Part shown: in pieces, positions 26,749-37,201 of the stretch
How positions within the stretch are numbered: the stretch's first letter is position 1
How the letters are laid out: the number at the start of each line of letters is the position of its first letter
Virus record (IMG/VR): IMGVR_UViG_2675903468_000002
Location: 1-42,574 of that record
Origin: a virus
Taxonomy: Duplodnaviria; Heunggongvirae; Uroviricota; Caudoviricetes
Strand: one strand, 5' to 3'
Length of the DNA stretch: 42,574 bases
Made by a program: the position numbers and the translations under genes
The notes under the pieces: model-generated
Database searches by the model: none
Told to the model about the DNA's origin: nothing
What the model saw: only the letters and a program-made list of their open reading frames with translations

Positions 26749-27795
26749 TTAAAAATCTTTCGTTATTTCTCTGACCGTCTGATTAAAACGTTCCTCTTCC
26801 AGTTCCACGCCAATCGCCCTGCATCCCAGCGACAGTGCCGCTTTTATTGTCGACCCCGACCCCATAAAAAAATCTGCGACCAAATCGCCTGGACGGCTGC
26901 TGGCAGTAATTATCTGACGCAACATATCCGCCGGTTTTTCACAGGGATGCTTACCCGGATAAAACTGCACGGGCTTGTGCGTCCAGACATCCGTATAAGG
27001 AACGACAGCCGATACGGAAAAATAACGCCGCAGTGATTTGTATTCCTCCAGCAGGCTGGCATATTGCCGGTTCAGTTCGCTGTATGTGCTGACCAGCTGG
27101 TGGTGTGGCTGCTCCAGTTCACCGCGCTGGTGTTTTTCTGCCACCACACGTGCAAACAGCGCCTGCAGTTTACTGTAATCGGCCTCATTCGGTAACTGCC
27201 ACTGACTGGTACCAAACCAGTGCGAAGCCATGTTTTTCTTTCCGGTGGCTTCTGCTATCTGTTTTGACGTTATCCCCAGTGATTCGCGCGCATCACGAAA
27301 GTAAGAAATCAGCGGGGCCATGACATGCTGCTTAAGCTCGCGCCCCTTTGCTGCATAACCGTCACTTTTGGGCTGGTATGGCCCCTGATAATGTTCGGCA
27401 AACAGAATGCGCTCTGTTGCCGGGAAATACGCCCGCAGGCTTTCCTTGTTGCACCCATTCCAGCGTCCGGACGGCTTCGCCCAGATAATGTGGTTCAGCA
27501 CATTAAAGCGTTCACGCATCATGATTTCGATATCAGATGCCAGGCGATGACCACAGAACAGGTAGAGACTTCCGGCAGGTTTCAGTACCCGCCAGAACTG
27601 CGCCAGACACTGAGCCAGCCATTTCAGGTAATCATCGTCCCCCTTCCACTGGTTATCCCAGCCCTCGGGCTTCACTTTAAAGTATGGCGGGTCTGTGACT
27701 ATCAGATCGACAGAGTTTTCCGGTAAGGTCCGGATAAATTCCAGGCAATCAGCGTTGATTAACTCACAACTGGATATTTTTACAGTATTAGCCAT
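26749..27795 (-). CDS. DNA methyltransferase (N6-adenine or N4-cytosine, beta-class), apparently orphan
   Basis: 348 aa; motif IV DPPY (LIVTDPPYFKV) near the N-terminus and AdoMet motif I FxGxG (DFFMGSGST) near the C-terminus; no adjacent restriction endonuclease candidate. Confidence 0.85.
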   Translation of the reverse strand: MANTVKISSCELINADCLEFIRTLPENSVDLIVTDPPYFKVKPEGWDNQWKGDDDYLKWLAQCLAQFWRVLKPAGSLYLFCGHRLASDIEIMMRERFNVLNHIIWAKPSGRWNGCNKESLRAYFPATERILFAEHYQGPYQPKSDGYAAKGRELKQHVMAPLISYFRDARESLGITSKQIAEATGKKNMASHWFGTSQWQLPNEADYSKLQALFARVVAEKHQRGELEQPHHQLVSTYSELNRQYASLLEEYKSLRRYFSVSAVVPYTDVWTHKPVQFYPGKHPCEKPADMLRQIITASSRPGDLVADFFMGSGSTIKAALSLGCRAIGVELEEERFNQTVREITKDF

Positions 27796-28143: not shown

Positions 28144-28650
28144 GTCTTTTTCCCTTTTCCGGTTAACGTGACATACCAATAACTCTTGTCGAAAAAGCCA
28201 GCAAGCTGAAAGACCGGTATTCGTAACCACCAGCACGTTTAACGTCCTGTGCCGTTTTTCGGGTACAAAAAACAGCCCGACGGCGGTTTTAAGGAAGGAG
28301 TCGAAGCAACCACTCTTAACATCATAATTGAATTTTTACGTACGTAAACCACAAATACGCCACTCAAATGTTAATGCTCTATAACAAAACCAAACATGCG
28401 AATAACACATATTACACCAAATACATCATTGTTATTTTTCAATGAAAAATGAGTAAATAATGTATTTCATTAATTAAATTCCGCATTACACAAAAATATC
28501 GACAAATTACACCAACGCGCATAAATGAGATCTTGATCATATTATCAATCACTAAATTAAACTTGCCTCTTGAAATAACCACATTGATTAGATGAATATT
28601 TATCGCGCAGTGACATCATTTTTTAAAATAGTTCAAAAAAAGGGTTCGTG

Positions 28651-29760
28651 ATGAAAAAATTAACGGTGGCAATTTCTGCTGTGGCTGCATCAGTATCAGT
28701 ACTGATGGCGATGTCTGCTCAGGCAGCAGAGATTTATAATAAAGACAGCAACAAGTTGGATCTGTACGGAAAAGTTAATGCTAAGCACTACTTCTCCTCT
28801 AACGATGCAAATGATGGCGACACAACTTATGCTCGTCTGGGTTTCAAAGGCGAAACTCAGATCAACGATCAACTGACTGGTTTCGGTCAGTGGGAATATG
28901 AATTCAAAGGAAACCGTACTGAAGAACAGGGAGCAGCCAAAGATAAAACCCGTCTTGCATTTGCAGGGCTTAAATTCGGTGACTACGGCTCCGTCGATTA
29001 CGGTCGTAACTACGGTGTAGCATACGATATCGGTGCATGGACTGACGTTCTGCCAGAATTCGGTGGAGATACTTGGACCCAAACAGATGTATTCATGACT
29101 GGTCGCACCACTGGTGTTGCAACTTATCGTAACAACGACTTCTTTGGTCTGGTTGATGGTCTGAATTTTGCTGCACAGTACCAGGGTAAGAATAATCATG
29201 ATCGTAGTAGCTTAGATAACTACACCAAAGGCAATGGCGATGGTTTTGGTTTCTCTGCGACCTATGAATACGAAGGTTTCGGCATTGGTGCAACGTATGC
29301 GAAATCTGATCGTACCGACACTCAAGTCAAATTGGGTAAACTTCTCCCAGGAGTATTTGCTTCCGGCGAAAATGCAGAAGTCTGGGCTGCAGGTCTGAAA
29401 TACGACGCAAACAACGTTTATCTGGCAACAACCTATTCAGAAACCCAGAATATGACTAAATTCGCAGATTACTTTGTGGCTAATAAAGCACAAAACTTCG
29501 AAGCTGTTGCACAATATCAGTTCGATTTCGGTCTGCGTCCGTCTGTTGCTTATCTGCAATCAAAAGGTAAAGATCTTGGCATTTTTGGTGACCAAGATTT
29601 AGTCAAATATGTTGATGTTGGCGCAACTTATTATTTCAACAAAAATATGTCTACATTCGTTGATTACAAAATCAACCTGCTTGACAAAAATGACTTTACT
29701 AAAGCTCTTGGTGTAAACACTGACGATATCGTTGCTGTAGGTATGGTATACCAGTTCTAA
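28651..29760 (+). CDS. nmpC: Outer membrane porin, NmpC/Lc/OmpC family (phage-encoded)
   Basis: [25 protein letters not shown] signal peptide then [24 protein letters not shown]...ending VGMVYQF; trimeric-porin hallmarks; closely matches recalled DLP12 NmpC; opposite strand to Q and lysis genes as in DLP12. Confidence 0.95.
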
Positions 29761-29940: not shown

Positions 29941-30324
29941 TTAATTAAGCTTAGTAACATCAATATCCATCTCTAAGCAAATGTCTAATGCCATTAACAT
30001 ACCTTCGATTATTCCCTCTGCTTTCTGTAACCTTTTCCCGATATACCCATCAGAGCAATTATGCTTCCGCGCCAGCATCATAAACGTCATCCCACCAACA
30101 TAATAATCCACCAGCAAATCATGTAAGCCATTGTTGCTCTTTTTCAGACAGGCCATACATCCACAAATGATCATCGCGTCATCGTCACAGCATTGCGGAC
30201 GAGATCTTACTTTTGAAGGAATTAATCCCTTAAAACCGGCGGCAACGGACGACCAGGTCACATCTTCATGATTATTAGCCGCCCACGCTCCCCAACGCTC
30301 AAGAACCATCTGAATATCACGCAT
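29941..30324 (-). CDS. Q: Late-gene antiterminator Q (phage 82 / DLP12 QuuD type)
   Basis: 127 aa, [24 protein letters not shown]...[18 protein letters not shown]; matches recalled QuuD; located just upstream of the porin, as quuD-nmpC in DLP12. Confidence 0.85.
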
Positions 30325-32854: not shown

Positions 32855-33847
32855 TCAGAATGTCAGTTTGTCACTGGATTTACCGAATTTGTCAGACATG
32901 GCTCCCAGGCCAGCCAGGACATCGACCTGTCGCTGTCGCCCACCTCCGGGAGCGGCTGGCTGTTGCCAGTAATCTTCGAAGTGACGATCGGGTCCAAAGA
33001 ACGTCGCAGCCTGCTTCACGAACTGTGTGCCGGTATTTCCTGTAGCACGTACCCAGGCGGCATACCGCTTCACACCATCAAGCATGGTCTCCGGTTTTAT
33101 TCCCTCCCTGATACGGGCTTTCCAGGCTTTGAAGGCTGCTGACTTGGAATTACCACCAGCACGTTTGGGATATTCCTGCCAGGCCTGTTCAAATTCCGGT
33201 GAATATTCCTGTCGGGCAGAACGCGCTGGTGCAGACGCGTCAGCGGATGCTCCAATAGTGTTTTTAGTCTCCGTTGTAATCTCTGTAGTAATCTCTGTAT
33301 TTGTATCAACATTCGGCGTATCCCCTGTTCCGTTATGACGTTGGGGGGTGTTCCGTTTTAACGTAATAGCTGTATCGCTGATTGAGTTATTGCTGTTACT
33401 TTCTGGCGAAACAGAAGAAGGTGTGGTGATGGCAGCAATTGCCTGTGGGTTGATCCCGACAAACAAAATATTGCTGCATTTCACCCCGTCTAGCATTTCC
33501 ACCGTACGTAAATCCAGAGTAATAAACCCAGCATCACGAAGACGCTTCAGCGCATCTGCGGTTTCCCTTTTCCCAAAGCCAAACTGTTCAGCAAACGCCT
33601 GATAGCTTCTTTGCAGCTTGTCACCCTGAAAACGCTTGCGATATCCCAGTAAAGCCCCGGTATGCTCATCCCTGACTTCTGTCGGGCGGTACCAGTAAAC
33701 AATCTCTGAAAGCAGCGCAATGGCAGTCGCATCCGGACGACCACTTGGTAGCCGAATATGTTTCCACCAGTTCGCTGGTGTGACATTGCCAGAAATATTG
33801 AGTTGGCCAATAGCCATAACTTCAGGTGTAGGAGCGTAACGGCTCAC
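32855..33847 (-). CDS. Replication initiator (lambda O-like organiser) with internal ori-like repeats
   Basis: 330 aa; GTG start with GGAGG RBS; low-complexity linker TNTEITTEITTETK encoded by DNA direct repeats; position upstream of the helicase loader. Confidence 0.6.
   Translation of the reverse strand: MSRYAPTPEVMAIGQLNISGNVTPANWWKHIRLPSGRPDATAIALLSEIVYWYRPTEVRDEHTGALLGYRKRFQGDKLQRSYQAFAEQFGFGKRETADALKRLRDAGFITLDLRTVEMLDGVKCSNILFVGINPQAIAAITTPSSVSPESNSNNSISDTAITLKRNTPQRHNGTGDTPNVDTNTEITTEITTETKNTIGASADASAPARSARQEYSPEFEQAWQEYPKRAGGNSKSAAFKAWKARIREGIKPETMLDGVKRYAAWVRATGNTGTQFVKQAATFFGPDRHFEDYWQQPAAPGGGRQRQVDVLAGLGAMSDKFGKSSDKLTF
33266..33360. repeat. Iteron-like direct repeats (candidate origin of replication) inside the initiator gene
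   Basis: Tandem GTAATCTCTGTA x2 (33276-33299) with flanking partial copies, plus TGTTCCGTT repeated at ~33326 and ~33349. Confidence 0.4.
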
Positions 33848-34068
33848 ACGGCACCTCCCAGACGCTTAAACATTTTTCCAGACAGAAATACCGCCAGCGG
33901 GTAACTGATGGTGTAGCTACGCCCCTGTAGTTCGCACACGACTTTCTGGCTTTCAGCGTTGACTAGGCAAACCCGCAGAACGTGACCGTTGCTGGTGGCG
34001 AACCACTGCCCCACACGGGGGCAACGGTTGTATCGGTGATACAGGGAATTAACGATGCGGCGAATCAT
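33844..34068 (-). CDS. Small hypothetical protein
   Basis: 74 aa with strong AGGAGG RBS; function unknown. Confidence 0.5.
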   Translation of the reverse strand: MIRRIVNSLYHRYNRCPRVGQWFATSNGHVLRVCLVNAESQKVVCELQGRSYTISYPLAVFLSGKMFKRLGGAV

Positions 34069-34616
34069 GGGTGCGCCTCCTTGTCAGAACCATTAAGTCT
34101 GGAATCAACAAGTGCAGCGCCAAAAACAGCATCTCCTACACGGTCATACAGCTTGCTCGCCAGCGGAGATTCAACGGCCTTAAGCATGGGGTAAAGCTGG
34201 CTTTTCCAGATTTGATGGATTTCACGCAAATGCAGGTATACGCCTCTGGCGTTTCGTGCAACAGCTGACATATCAACCGCGTCAGCACCAGATAAATTCT
34301 TCTCCATCTGGTTAAAGGCGTTGATGTATGCCTCTTTGAACCGGGCTGCACGTTTGCCAGTAAAGCCCATTGCCAGGAACGCGAAGCCATCGCGGGTGAT
34401 TTGATAGCAAGGTAGTTTGCGGCCTGTGCAATCGGTGTAATCACTCACCGAAAAATTGCGGGCAGTGAATGATGCGGAGCATTCAAGCGTGCGGATCTTT
34501 TTCAGTACATCGTCATGACGTTTGGAGAAGAAGTTGGCAACAGCCAGGGATGAAGTAACAGCCTGACCATCAACGATGGCAATTTCAGGTTGAGTGAGGG
34601 TTGGGATCGTAGCCAT
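34065..34616 (-). CDS. Rha-family phage regulatory protein
   Basis: Start MATIPTLTQPEIAIVDGQAVTSSLAVANFFSKRHDDVLKKIR with AAGAGG RBS; Rha-type domain. The ORF-track extension to 34937 starts with TTG and contains a terminator, so it is not used. Confidence 0.7.
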   Translation of the reverse strand: MATIPTLTQPEIAIVDGQAVTSSLAVANFFSKRHDDVLKKIRTLECSASFTARNFSVSDYTDCTGRKLPCYQITRDGFAFLAMGFTGKRAARFKEAYINAFNQMEKNLSGADAVDMSAVARNARGVYLHLREIHQIWKSQLYPMLKAVESPLASKLYDRVGDAVFGAALVDSRLNGSDKEAHP

Positions 34617-34632
34617 GATGGCAGCCTCTTTG

Positions 34633-34658
34633 GTGATTTTAAATAACTCACCACCAAG
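34633..34658 (-). promoter_or_regulatory. Inverted repeat overlapping a candidate promoter just upstream of the Rha gene
   Basis: GGTGA-ttttaaataac-TCACC palindrome within an AT-rich TTATTTAAAAT stretch ~20 nt upstream of the Rha start. Confidence 0.3.
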
Positions 34659-34781
34659 GCTTTCCACGACCTTATTGGTGGTGAGACGTACAGGGGTGGA
34701 AATACCGGTCACCAAAGAACCCGGCCCAACCGAAGTTGGCCCTGCACGCCCCACCATAATTTGGGCGTAATGCTGCTCATG

Positions 34782-34808
34782 ACACAAAAAAACCGCAAGA
34801 GCGCGGTT
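34782..34808 (-). terminator. Intrinsic terminator downstream of the Lar-like gene
   Basis: Minus strand AACCGC-GCUCUU-GCGGUU followed by UUUUUUUGUG. Confidence 0.6.
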
Positions 34809-34933
34809 GTGCGCTTTGGTGAATTCCGGGTTTCCACGCCCGGCACCCGCTTTATAAGGTGCTGGAATAGTGTAACGTCCCGAAATTGCAGAATCAATAT
34901 GTTGGTTGCGGATCATTTTGTACCTACTCGCCG

Positions 34934-35143
34934 TCAATCCGCGTTTTCGCGCTGATTCCAGTCATGAACAGCACGTTCTTTCGAATCAGGGATCTGGTTT
35001 GCGTTACAGCAAGTACATGCGACGTAATAACCATCATCGCCATCCAGAAAATATTTCACCTCAATGAGTTGTACTTCCGGATTTCCGCAGAACGGGCAAG
35101 GTTTCAGATCGACATCACCAGTTACACACGTCTTGGTTTGCAT
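34934..35143 (-). CDS. Small zinc-ribbon protein, Lar-like restriction-alleviation family candidate
   Basis: 69 aa with CPFCG...CTCC cysteine motif; TAATG overlap with the upstream antirepressor gene suggests translational coupling. Confidence 0.5.
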   Translation of the reverse strand: MQTKTCVTGDVDLKPCPFCGNPEVQLIEVKYFLDGDDGYYVACTCCNANQIPDSKERAVHDWNQRENAD

Positions 35144-36003
35144 TATTTGTTCTCCTGTAAAAGATTCGCGAGCTCAGTGTTATGGGTAAACAGCCCATCC
35201 CATGTTTTCTTCATCGGTAGTTCACCGTTCAGATAATGGCGATATAACCAGGCGGCACCTTTTTTCTTCAGGAGTGGTTTGAAAATCTCGCGCATTTCCC
35301 CGTTTTCCTGCTCAACCTGCCCAGAACGCTCAGTCAGGTATTGGTCACGTGCATACGCTTTTACACGCCAGCGCGGATACATAGCCTCCGGACGGTCGTC
35401 ATACAGCCAGTTACGCTCTTCAAGGAACGCATTAATCTGACGAGTGTTTACACCGTTGAGTTGTTTGCAGAACTGCACAGGAGTGATGCCATCGGCGAGA
35501 TGGCTTTCGAGTTTGCTGATGTAGCGAGCCTGACGCTCTGCATACCCGAGAGCAAGGCGTTCGGATTTTTTGGCTTCAATCCACGCTTCAGCAGCAGCGA
35601 TCGGATCGTCAAAGTCTGGAATAGTGTTTGAAGAAGGCGTTGCTTTACGAAAATACGCCTGCTCCATTTTTTCGAAGAACGACCAGGCCTCGTCTGTATC
35701 GACGATTTTTGACATGCGGGCAGCGCCGCGTTCTGTCCAGAGAGTGAGTGAACGCGCATTTCTTCCAACAGAGTGACCAATAGTCACTCTGTCCTTAAAT
35801 GCTTTCAGGGCATCACCAGTTAAAAGAAAATAATGTTTCCCATCTTCAAAGCGCTCAAGATTGCGCGACAGATTTTTACGGATATTAGCTTCATCCGTGC
35901 CATATCCCGCCGCCAGCGTTTCAGTGGTAACTACGCGTACCCCCTGCCACTCAATCACTGGCAGGTTTTCAGGGTTGACTAATTTTTGTTTATTGATCAT
36001 CAT
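35143..36003 (-). CDS. Antirepressor-like protein (ORF6N/Bro-N-type N-terminal domain, KilA-C-like C-terminus)
   Basis: 286 aa; N-terminal LPVIEWQGVRVVTTETLAAGYGTDEANIRKNLSRNLERFEDGKHYF resembles phage antirepressor N-domains. Confidence 0.6.
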   Translation of the reverse strand: MMINKQKLVNPENLPVIEWQGVRVVTTETLAAGYGTDEANIRKNLSRNLERFEDGKHYFLLTGDALKAFKDRVTIGHSVGRNARSLTLWTERGAARMSKIVDTDEAWSFFEKMEQAYFRKATPSSNTIPDFDDPIAAAEAWIEAKKSERLALGYAERQARYISKLESHLADGITPVQFCKQLNGVNTRQINAFLEERNWLYDDRPEAMYPRWRVKAYARDQYLTERSGQVEQENGEMREIFKPLLKKKGAAWLYRHYLNGELPMKKTWDGLFTHNTELANLLQENK

Positions 36004-36078
36004 GAAATCCCCTTACTAATCAGAATAAGTCGGGCTGACGGAGTGCGGCCCGGCTTTTCTTTTTCGTTCAGTAACCGT

Positions 36079-36378
36079 TCATCGCGTGGACATTTCTGAT
36101 GAATCACTCTGCCCATCTTCCGTGCGCGCTAGGCTTGGATTTGAAATTTTGCGTAACGAATCAGGAATTCCATCTTCAGGGTGAGGATAAAGATCTGGCC
36201 TTAAGCCATGTGGCGTGACCTTCCATGCAACTACTTCACATACGCGTAAAACAAAACGAGCAGGAATTGTGTTTTTTGAAAACCACTGATTCACCGCTTG
36301 CGGAGTTACACCAAGGTTTCGTGCAATGGCATTTTGCGCAATTAATGCGCGAAGTACGTCGTAATCATTTCCTTTCAT
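36079..36378 (-). CDS. Cro-like HTH regulator (first gene of the rightward early operon)
   Basis: 99 aa; HTH LRALIAQNAIARNLGVTPQAVNQWF; divergent from the cI-like gene across a 133-bp operator region. Confidence 0.65.
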   Translation of the reverse strand: MKGNDYDVLRALIAQNAIARNLGVTPQAVNQWFSKNTIPARFVLRVCEVVAWKVTPHGLRPDLYPHPEDGIPDSLRKISNPSLARTEDGQSDSSEMSTR

Positions 36379-36511: not shown

Positions 36512-37201
36512 ATGAAGAACGTCAAAAACACGGAAAATCGAATAGCCGCGATGCTGAAAGCAAAAGGATGGACTCAGGCTCAACTGGCCCGCAAGTTAGG
36601 TGTGAGTGCGCAATCAGTGCAGTACTGGACAACAGGAAAAACATTTCCACGGAGTGATAAGCTCGCGCATTTATCAGAGATTAGCGGTTATCCACAATCC
36701 TGGTTCTTAGGTGAAGACTCCTCACCAACCTTTTCCTCGCAAGAGAAACACCAGACAAGAACAGATAGCGTCGTGTTTAATGTCCTTGATGTTGAGTTTA
36801 GTTGCGGTGATGGAACTCATGTCCGTGGTGACTTGATAGATGTAGTGCGCTCAATAGAACTTGATCCTGAATATGCCCGACGTCTTGTTGGAAATCGGGC
36901 ATTCAAAAATATAGAAATAGGTAACGCCAGAGGAGACAGTATGGCTCCCACAATCTCACCTGGCGACCTTCTTTTTCTTGATAAGACAGTAACTTATTTT
37001 GATGGCGATGGTATTTATGCATTTTGTTTTGATGGAGAATGCTACGTGAAAAGGCTTCAAAAAATTGGAAGCAAAATCATGGTGTTATCTGATAACCCCA
37101 ATTATCAACCATGGAGCATCGAAAAAGAGGGGTTAGCTCTGCTTTATATCCAGTCTAAAGTGATCTCATCAGTACCATTCAACATAAACAGATTTGGTTA
37201 G
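36512..37201 (+). CDS. cI: CI-type prophage repressor (HTH plus LexA-like S24 autopeptidase domain)
   Basis: 229 aa; HTH GWTQAQLARKLGVSAQSVQYWTTGK; C-terminal S24 domain with GDSMAPTISPGDLLFLDK and downstream Lys. Confidence 0.85.
   Translation: MKNVKNTENRIAAMLKAKGWTQAQLARKLGVSAQSVQYWTTGKTFPRSDKLAHLSEISGYPQSWFLGEDSSPTFSSQEKHQTRTDSVVFNVLDVEFSCGDGTHVRGDLIDVVRSIELDPEYARRLVGNRAFKNIEIGNARGDSMAPTISPGDLLFLDKTVTYFDGDGIYAFCFDGECYVKRLQKIGSKIMVLSDNPNYQPWSIEKEGLALLYIQSKVISSVPFNINRFG

Follow-up and report, generated by a model that had tools for sequence, protein, structure and literature searches.

The DNA analysed here is the virus record IMGVR_UViG_2675903468_000002 of IMG/VR, positions 1-42,574, taken in its full length and called the window below; all coordinates are window positions. 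The region under study is a block of the early-right operon of this lambdoid phage, located between a cro-like gene and the replication genes. It contains a gene for an ORF6N-KilAC protein, a gene for a small zinc ribbon of the Lar family and a Rha-family gene, whose open reading frame (ORF) runs across the genes of two small RNAs, IsrK and C4. The features are collected in Table 1, where the Shine-Dalgarno sequence is abbreviated as SD and the helix-turn-helix domain as HTH.

Table 1. Features of the block and of its surroundings in the window, with their motifs, their equivalents in other elements and their spacing.
Feature	Positions	Strand	Remarks
cI gene, LexA-like (S24 and HTH)	36512-37201		divergent from the cro-like gene
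cro-like HTH gene	36079-36378	minus	first of the early-right operon; Pfam YdaS_toxin, 47.3 bits
ORF6N + KilAC (ANT) protein, 286 aa	35143-36003	minus	75-nt gap after the cro-like gene
Lar-family Cys4 zinc ribbon, 69 aa	34934-35143	minus
Long Ash-Rha ORF, 283 aa	34065-34916	minus	in the position of P4 eta
Candidate sigma-70 promoter PisrK	34869-34897	minus	-35 TTGATT 34897-34892; 17-nt spacer; -10 TACACT 34874-34869
IsrK small RNA	34786-34862	minus	P4 seqA equivalent; first base 34862
Decoy site a1 (IsrK)	34837-34831	minus	GTGGAAA, in the loop of hairpin 2
Decoy site b1 (IsrK)	34822-34814	minus	TCACCAAAG
IsrK terminator	34808-34786	minus	stem 34808-34791, U-run to 34786 (terminator scan)
C4 antisense RNA	34674-34761	minus	equivalent of P4 CI and of Salmonella STnc1160
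Conserved AUG at the C4 5' end	34755-34757	minus	start of the Gifsy-1 orf45 equivalent
C4 loop b'	34720-34709	minus	GTTCTTTGGTGA
C4 junction a'	34702-34696	minus	TTTCCAC
Target region a2/b2	34625-34667	minus	P4 seqC equivalent
Target a2	34667-34661	minus	GTGGAAA
Target b2	34636-34626	minus	TCACCAAAGAG; overlaps the Rha SD
Rha SD	34628-34625	minus	GAGG
Short Rha-domain protein, 183 aa	34065-34616	minus	internal SD and ATG (MATIPT...)
orf74, 74 aa	33844-34068	minus	overlaps the Rha stop by 4 nt; replication genes next
Q gene	29941-30324
Porin gene	28648-29760	plus	opposite strand, just downstream of Q
N6_N4 DNA methylase gene	26749-27795	minus	downstream of Q and of the porin gene

The original prediction, made from the letters of the sequence, had assigned the three proteins of the block to families, and searches with hidden Markov models (HMMs) bore this out, since all three assignments exceed curated cut-offs. 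The gene described as antirepressor-like, downstream of cro, matches Pfam ORF6N with 67.1 bits (cut-off 27.8) and KilAC/ANT with 29.3 bits (cut-off 25.3), as well as the PHROG family phrog_63, 'anti-repressor Ant', with E=5e-47. The 69-aa product carries the expected zinc-ribbon motifs, CPFCG at residues 16-20 and CTCC at residues 43-46, and passes the cut-offs of both Lar family models, Lar_restr_allev (PF14354; 43.1 bits, cut-off 28.6) and TIGR03655 (49.6 bits, cut-off 39.6). The predicted TAATG coupling of these two genes is present, base 35143 being shared by the TAA stop of the former and by the ATG of the latter. The Rha domain is recognized by Pfam PF09669 Phage_pRha with 106.1 bits (cut-off 29.9) and by TIGR02681 with 102.4 bits (cut-off 45.95). 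The cro-like gene scores 23.4 bits against P22_Cro, under the cut-off of that model.

The 316-nt gap between lar and the ATG of the short Rha protein contains two Rfam small-RNA genes and is itself part of a continuous ORF. A scan of the window at the Rfam gathering thresholds returned exactly two matches, isrK and C4, both located within this gap. IsrK (RF01394) scores 67 bits against a gathering threshold of 50 and C4 (RF01695) 83.6 bits against 45; both matches are end to end, covering model positions 1-77 of 77 and 1-87 of 87 respectively, and C4 begins 24 nt downstream of IsrK. Upstream of IsrK lies the candidate promoter PisrK, placed so that the transcription start falls on the first base of IsrK. 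Because a consensus promoter scan missed it, the call rests on conservation: PisrK is conserved in position and sequence across 15 aligned loci of related phages, including the P7 c4 promoter region, and its distance from the IsrK start equals that of the Gifsy-1 isrK promoter, which experimentally drives isrK-orf45-anrP (PMC4825925). A terminator, formed by a hairpin and a T-run, is indeed present in the gap, as predicted. The arrangement proposed around it, a terminator followed by a separately promoted Rha gene, is not supported in that form, however, as the candidate promoter is upstream of the terminator, the terminator is that of IsrK itself and the C4 loop pairs with the Rha SD. The Rha frame, moreover, can be followed backwards across the entire cassette as far as an ATG 18 nt past lar.

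The predicted fold of C4 has the three-helix shape of the family, with a long closing helix enclosing two hairpins, and a minimum free energy of -44.6 kcal/mol (z=-4.1). In an alignment of 18 homologues, drawn from lambdoid phages, N15, P7, P88, Gifsy-1 and P4, 99.3% of the helix cells are paired and both partners have changed in 12 pairs, while a control with slid partners gave 34-48% paired cells and 1-4 compensatory pairs. Complementarity links b' (GUUCUUUGGUGA), the hairpin-2 loop, to b2 (UCACCAAAGAG), which reaches into the GAGG of the Rha SD, and also to b1 within IsrK (UCACCAAAG). Similarly, the junction at the 3' side of C4, a' (UUUCCAC), is complementary to GUGGAAA, found both after C4 (a2) and in the hairpin-2 loop of IsrK (a1). 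The duplex of b' with b2 is worth -15.0 kcal/mol, a value reached by 2 of 500 shuffles, and that with b1 -14.6 kcal/mol, reached by 1 of 500; the a duplexes, at about -9 kcal/mol, are matched by 15 of 500. The positions of the target sites are fixed across the aligned phage loci, and the stretch 34610-34673 also folds as a leader hairpin (z=-4.85). The presence of two target sets, with b2 over the ribosome-binding site of the next gene, is the a1b1-c4-a2b2 logic of the immI locus of P1 and P7. By analogy with these systems, C4 would be processed from a shared transcript and would repress Rha.

Related cassettes were collected, and their loops and targets compared. BLAST comparison of phage genomes with the 311-nt cassette identified 139 records, which include Shiga toxin (Stx) phages of the Stx1 and Stx2 types, SfV, phiP27, cdtI, mEp460, N15, P88, phages of Yersinia and Hafnia, and P1/P7; an exact-pattern scan of IMG/VR added 120 further loci. 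The IsrK-C4 tandem exceeds the gathering thresholds in all 14 non-P1 loci examined, and P7 gives the c4-a1b1 motif together with C4. Parsing was successful for 111 of 113 unique cassettes, in which the b' loop takes 44 distinct forms and the a' junction 22. Among the 111, loop-target duplexes average -13.1 kcal/mol for cognate pairs versus -7.3 kcal/mol for non-cognate ones, and the cognate target ranks within the best decile for b in 92-95%, and for a in 77-79%, of the 61 specificity types. That one loop should co-vary with two target sites lying apart from each other, in a three-way pattern, is hard to explain except by RNA pairing; loop/target co-variation is also the basis of the heteroimmunity of P1 and P7.

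In five IMG/VR contigs (L037, L038, L052, L092 and L109), IsrK-C4-payload cassettes of differing a/b specificities follow one another in tandem, two or three to a contig, the copies being about 655 nt apart where positions are listed (L037, L038, L052, L092). In the P2-like phage P88 (L012, 1611-1985), the frame starting at the C4 AUG is open for 148 codons; the annotated payload, a 'derepression protein' of the P4 epsilon family, begins in another frame.

In the window, the frame of Rha is open from a TTG at 34937 and from the ATG at 34916, which is preceded by AGGT, and spans promoter, IsrK, terminator, C4 and a2/b2 before entering the Rha domain. The NCBI Prokaryotic Genome Annotation Pipeline (PGAP) calls the equivalent long start in Escherichia coli 2012C-4227, whose ORF6N and lar genes are identical. 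The long ORF matches Pfam Phage_ASH (PF10554; 56 bits) in addition to Phage_pRha (106 bits), and PHROG phrog_821 with E=1e-164; the Phage_ASH match is exactly the translated IsrK and C4 stretch (window 34584-34874), here and in five other phages. A frame open from upstream of IsrK into the payload is found in 74 of 113 unique cassettes. In a subset of 39 sequences of the open type, frame 0 contains no stop versus 22.1 +/- 3.5 expected, the null being obtained by shuffling residues within columns, a procedure which breaks neighbour dependence and may overstate the expected number; the other two frames contain 68 and 139 stops. The three codon positions of the Ash part have a flat entropy (0.62/0.64/0.59), without the third-position excess of a protein domain under amino-acid constraint, while the values for the Rha payload (0.56/0.47/1.03) reveal real coding constraint; in addition, identity within the Ash part is 0.63 for amino acids, below the 0.77 for nucleotides. 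The frame is thus kept open while the peptide is not conserved, since stops are excluded and codon periodicity is absent. Of 66 open-frame cassettes, 43 have downstream a homologue of orf74 (phrog_1153, E=8e-42, of unknown function in PHROG) and 37 an O-like replication gene, against 0 of 36 for the other cassettes.

The Phage_ASH model is, in effect, the translated IsrK and C4 region, as seen in phage P4 (L142, 8168-8584 and 8420-8507), where PF10554 matches an obsolete 'cI gene product' ORF over the CI RNA, itself a C4 match. An equation of Ash with P4 epsilon, found in a survey of P4-like satellites which took PF10554 as the 'epsilon' marker (PMC8628076), was considered and rejected, P4 epsilon corresponding to PF25738. 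Because PF10554 matches the ORF over the CI RNA and not epsilon, that survey was probably detecting the immunity RNA locus.

The embedded layout, with one ORF lying over promoter, IsrK, C4 and targets, is that of P4 eta and kil, and is found in the window in the ORF 34916-34065. In both elements an internal promoter, constitutive in P4 and a candidate one in the window, is followed in the same order by seqA (IsrK-type), CI (C4-type) and the target sites, with replication genes downstream. The P4 eta ORF (8812-8168) starts inside the end of orf88 and spans the isrK and C4 matches, and the junction where the shorter product starts, '...EAAIMAT...', is the same ('...QEAAIMATT...' in P4, '...KEAAIMATIPT...' in the window). 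According to PMC10111431, which cites Forti et al. 1999, the P4 promoter is internal to eta, its transcripts terminate through CI and seqA, and occasional read-through gives a truncated Kil; only the upstream promoter allows Eta to be translated in full length, in coupling with the gene upstream, and translating Eta keeps transcription from terminating, with the result that genes downstream are transcribed. The two systems differ in the payload, Kil in P4 and a Rha domain in the window, and in what lies upstream, PLL and orf88 in P4 and the lambdoid pR operon (cro, ORF6N-KilAC, lar) in the window. The helper-derepression protein epsilon is absent from the window. The window phage is lambdoid and has a protein cI repressor, and for this reason the RNA would be a second immunity layer and not the only one.

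The isrK-orf45(STnc1160)-anrP locus of Gifsy-1 shares with the window the IsrK-C4 tandem with about the same spacing, the position of the promoter, a candidate one in the window, the a1/b1, a'/b' and a2/b2 logic, the conserved AUG at the 5' end of C4 and an antirepressor-type payload after it. When short IsrK is supplied in trans, it pairs with orf45 (the C4 region) and anrP translation increases 139-fold (PMC4825925, Hershko-Shalev et al. 2016); AnrP induces the prophage, and anrP expression requires orf45 to be translated (PMC4825925). Barquist et al. had earlier pointed to IsrK-C4 systems in lambdoid prophages of Salmonella (PMC3632133). Unlike Gifsy-1, where orf45 is a 45-codon leader with a stop just upstream and an AUGA at anrP, the window has no short leader ORF whose stop overlaps the payload AUG: the AUG at 34757 is in frame with Rha with no intervening stop, and the fused frame is open far upstream. 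In addition, the Gifsy-1 cassette lies after Q and that of the window before the replication genes, and the payload is ORF6N in the former and Rha in the latter.

The immI locus of P1 and P7 (a1b1, c4, a2b2, icd, ant1/ant2) has in common with the window a C4 of the same Rfam family, the two target sets, with b2 over the ribosome-binding site of the first downstream gene, and the control of an antirepressor. P1 C4 blocks icd-ant (PMC8198154 and the P7 record), and changes in loops and targets produce the heteroimmunity of P1 and P7 (PMC8198154, PMC12197685). In P7, by contrast, no IsrK-type terminator element exceeds the threshold, Rfam calling the c4-a1b1 motif; there is a separate icd gene, the promoter carries a C1 operator and the frame through C4 is interrupted by stops. 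The secondary immunity region of N15, with its cA RNA, gene 31 and antirepressor gene 30, has an IsrK-like element with terminator, a C4 and an antirepressor; it differs in that a Bro-N protein serves as payload and is not fused to the small ORF, and in that its cassette does not belong to an operon of the pR type preceding replication genes.

Within the cassette, the Rha domain starting at the internal SD and ATG occupies the position of P4 kil, Gifsy-1 anrP and P1 icd-ant. In Stx1a phages, a protein with the annotation 'phage antirepressor Ant' has 94.5% identity to this Rha protein, and within phrog_63 a single stretch is matched by both the Rha domain and the ORF6N domain. Payloads of the cassette elsewhere are P7 Ant1 (KilAC), Gifsy-1 AnrP (ORF6N) and P4 epsilon, all of them antirepressors or derepression proteins, and N15 gene 30 (Bro-N) is annotated as an antirepressor. 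Because of this shared position, Rha is probably an antirepressor too. The possibility that it is an ortholog of an experimentally tested antirepressor was examined and rejected, as it is dissimilar to both AnrP and Ant1; the resemblance to AnrP was found, unexpectedly, in the ORF6N gene upstream.

The Rha gene (34065-34910, set against L001 and L003) is a mosaic. Its IsrK-C4 part has 98% identity to the Stx2a_1447/mEp460 type, while the Rha protein is only 78% identical to that of Stx2a_1447, versus 94.5% for the Stx1a-phage type. The first payload codons, MAT[IV]P, are common to Rha-type and SfV-type payloads and resemble the MATT of P4, and this sharing across payload types suggests a recombination joint just inside the payload.

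The 286-aa protein belongs by its domains to the Bro-network antirepressor family, and inactivation of a repressor is its predicted activity: its ORF6N domain is 47% identical to Gifsy-1 AnrP (E=1e-33) and its C-terminal, KilAC part is similar to P7 Ant1 (E=1e-4). The same protein is 44% identical to one annotated as 'roi: DNA binding protein'. The Lar-like protein aligns with Rac RalR and with the Lar of phage Fostie through its Cys4 ribbon (CPFCG...C..C...WN.R in Rac Lar/RalR) and its C-terminal WNxR, and is 33% identical to Rac RalR/Lar (E=1e-9); it is not an ortholog of it, since it obtains 26.2 bits from the equivalog NF007260 against a cut-off of 113. A search of solved structures with this protein gave nothing at E<=1. 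In the genomic context, too, it differs from Rac Lar, adjoining an antirepressor-family gene and not recET. The pair formed with the antirepressor-family gene is found again, with an identical 1-nt overlap, in phage Fostie, and as adjacent genes in SaltyDalty, with identities of about 38-44%. It is rare in E. coli, where an ORF6N-lar pair was found in 20 of 5426 genomes, and in the Cronobacter phage ENT39118, which carries the closest full-length antirepressor homologue, the next gene is an unrelated 133-aa ORF and not lar. The conserved coupling hints that the Lar-like protein may act together with the ORF6N-KilAC protein, and not independently against restriction.

The slot between cro and the replication genes (36003-36079, 32855-36378) has no cII-like gene in the window, and the ORF6N-lar pair is found there instead; relatives have in the same slot either a cII-like gene (SfV, cdtI, Stx2a_1447) or a Roi/Rha-type gene (PhiR49_2, Stx1_14040). 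In the gap that separates cro from the ORF6N gene, on the plus strand and opposing the early-right operon, a further site (35975-36066) consists of a promoter-like TTGACT-17-CATCAT (35975-36003), 24 nt before a strong terminator-like hairpin (36027-36056; 11 bp, then a T-run). It would give an antisense RNA of about 55 nt covering the ribosome-binding region of the ORF6N gene, reminiscent of P22 sar; the site matches no Rfam family even at E<=5, and its fold reaches only z=-2.2.

The interpretation favoured here, and regarded as probable, is that the block consists of two lysis-lysogeny modules, the ORF6N-KilAC gene with its coupled Lar partner, and an RNA immunity cassette of the P4/P1-immI/Gifsy-1 type within the Rha gene. 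By homology with P4, P1 and Gifsy-1, the following course of events may be proposed. Both proteins of the first module would be made whenever pR fires. In the lysogen, with pR off, the internal promoter would yield IsrK and, through read-through and processing, C4, which would pair with a2/b2, block translation of Rha and cause premature termination, leaving Rha silent and, by polarity, orf74 and the replication genes downstream silent as well. The short IsrK could act as a decoy or titrator of C4, or as a remodeller of the long transcript, turning Rha on without SOS induction. Upon derepression of pR, ribosomes starting at the ATG at 34916 would translate through the terminator and C4, preventing termination, and would bypass the masked SD, so that full-length Ash-Rha would be made and the replication genes transcribed, as for P4 Eta. 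The Rha-domain product would most likely act as an antirepressor, the candidate target being the S24-type cI of the phage itself or the repressor of a co-resident prophage.

Several points weigh against this interpretation. PisrK scores only 8/12, under the threshold of the promoter scan, the fold of IsrK alone is indistinguishable from that of shuffled sequences (z=-1.0), and the excess of expected stops may be inflated by the null already described. The Rha payload has no similarity to Gifsy-1 AnrP or P7 Ant1, and the literature reached holds no Rha-domain payload of this cassette tested as an antirepressor. The Rha proteins of phi80 and P22 and the Roi protein of HK022 are known for growth inhibition on hosts deficient in integration host factor, not for repressor binding. 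The translational override would be carried over from P4, a non-lambdoid precedent, and N-type antitermination, if the phage has it, would read through the terminator regardless.

Other explanations were weighed against the same data. That the Rfam matches are incidental, and Ash-Rha a two-domain protein whose Ash portion is a genuine fold resembling IsrK and C4 by chance, is scarcely credible. Such a protein would agree with a frame open in every cassette of the open type, with a start in the operon register after the upstream gene, and with the way in which Pfam, PHROG and PGAP treat the region; yet the Ash part lacks the third-position excess seen in Rha, is less conserved in amino acids than in nucleotides, and undergoes compensatory helix changes and loop/two-target co-variation which a protein domain does not explain. 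Furthermore, the founding P4 member of PF10554 is the obsolete ORF over CI, and the cassettes of Gifsy-1, P7, N15 and Yersinia have stops in frame, yet retain the RNAs. Hardly better, and to be considered very improbable, is the view closest to the original prediction, in which a plain terminator ends a cro-ant-lar unit, Rha has an ordinary promoter, and the block forms with the methyltransferase an anti-restriction kit, Lar alleviating type I restriction. Membership of the Lar family, with the identity to Rac Lar/RalR, stands, as do the terminator and the DNA methylase found elsewhere in the window as predicted. However, family membership is the sole support for a counter-defence toolkit: the RalR/Lar equivalog cut-off is far from being reached (26 vs 113 bits), and Rac Lar, the one characterised relative, is now annotated as the DNase toxin RalR, an endodeoxyribonuclease with the antisense RNA RalA. 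PADLOC found no counter-defence match for the three proteins, giving only weak PDC-S05 matches to the ORF6N domain and none for Lar and Rha, and, apart from methyltransferase models, no anti-defence family was matched. The methylase belongs to the Q-late region, at a distance of 7 kb, the terminator comes after the candidate promoter and inside the Rfam IsrK match, C4 and its targets separate it from Rha, and, in contexts otherwise unrelated, lar remains coupled to an antirepressor-family gene. Lysis-lysogeny control, made of two Bro-network (antirepressor-type) proteins and one RNA switch, is the better reading of the block, and the cassette is a common, already understood kind of module, not an anti-restriction toolkit.

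Two further proposals accept the RNA switch, or leave it aside, and concern the proteins. The first, rather doubtful as a whole and the more plausible of the two, regards ORF6N-KilAC and Rha as DNA-binding regulators of lytic growth or replication of the Roi/Rha type, the main part of C4 being to add a second layer of immunity over the replication genes, like that of CI over P4 alpha. It is favoured by the 'roi' annotation of a relative of the ORF6N-KilAC protein, by the Roi-annotated gene of PhiR49_2, which lies in the same slot and is itself a Phage_pRha member, and by the location of open-frame cassettes before replication genes. HK022 Roi and the Rha of phi80 and P22 share with the window Phage_pRha and the slot between cro and the replication genes, and ORF6N/KilAC relatives are annotated 'roi'; no RNA switch is described for these genes in the literature searched. 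The Rha and Ash of 'Eru' Stx phages have been discussed as possible replication-region proteins (PMC8951638). Against this, all experimentally studied payloads of the cassette are antirepressors or derepression proteins, and the ORF6N domain resembles AnrP, the inducer of Gifsy-1. The second proposal, that the Lar-like protein is a DNase toxin of the RalR type or a cofactor of ORF6N-KilAC instead of a restriction-alleviation factor, is unlikely. The relation to the NCBIfam RalR toxin model (E=1e-5), the toxin annotation of Rac ralR with its antisense RalA, and the pair kept at about 40% identity in Fostie and SaltyDalty are in its favour, and are countered by the failure to approach the RalR equivalog cut-off, by the fact that the Rfam scan did not find a RalA-like antisense RNA, and by the absence of lar next to the antirepressor gene of ENT39118.

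Outside the block, the porin gene is full-length (Porin_1, 506 bits), and the methylase of the Q-late region matches the PADLOC MTase_II model with 506 bits.

The two-module interpretation has consequences beyond this phage, as members of the cassette family occur in many phages of the Stx1 and Stx2 types and, when the stretch 34600-34910 was compared with complete E. coli genomes, in 2443 of 5426 (45%), at up to 8 places per genome, with 214 places on plasmids. The regulatory RNAs are invisible in ordinary annotation, because the PGAP records inspected show only a 'Rha family' protein and Pfam models the stretch as an 'Ash' domain: among the E. coli rows listed, the annotation over the cassette is 'Rha family phage regulatory protein', and in the one E. 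coli region inspected in full no ncRNA feature is annotated over it. A wider proposal, possible though on balance not the expected outcome, is that in lambdoid prophages IsrK and C4 form a second, RNA-based immunity layer which gates Rha and the replication module by polarity, with a heteroimmunity code (44 b' loops, up to 8 cassettes per genome), with decoy-driven, SOS-independent induction, Stx phages included, and with an ORF kept open purely for override by pR ribosomes. If such a code is real, co-resident prophages of a shared class would silence each other's antirepressor and replication genes. The main value of the analysis is corrective, in that the block represents lysis-lysogeny control of a known type and not a new counter-defence kit. 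The Gifsy-1 switch is an SOS-independent route to induction, and, if the switch of the window works in the same way, it would bear on the timing of induction of toxin-converting prophages and on the cross-talk between co-resident prophages.

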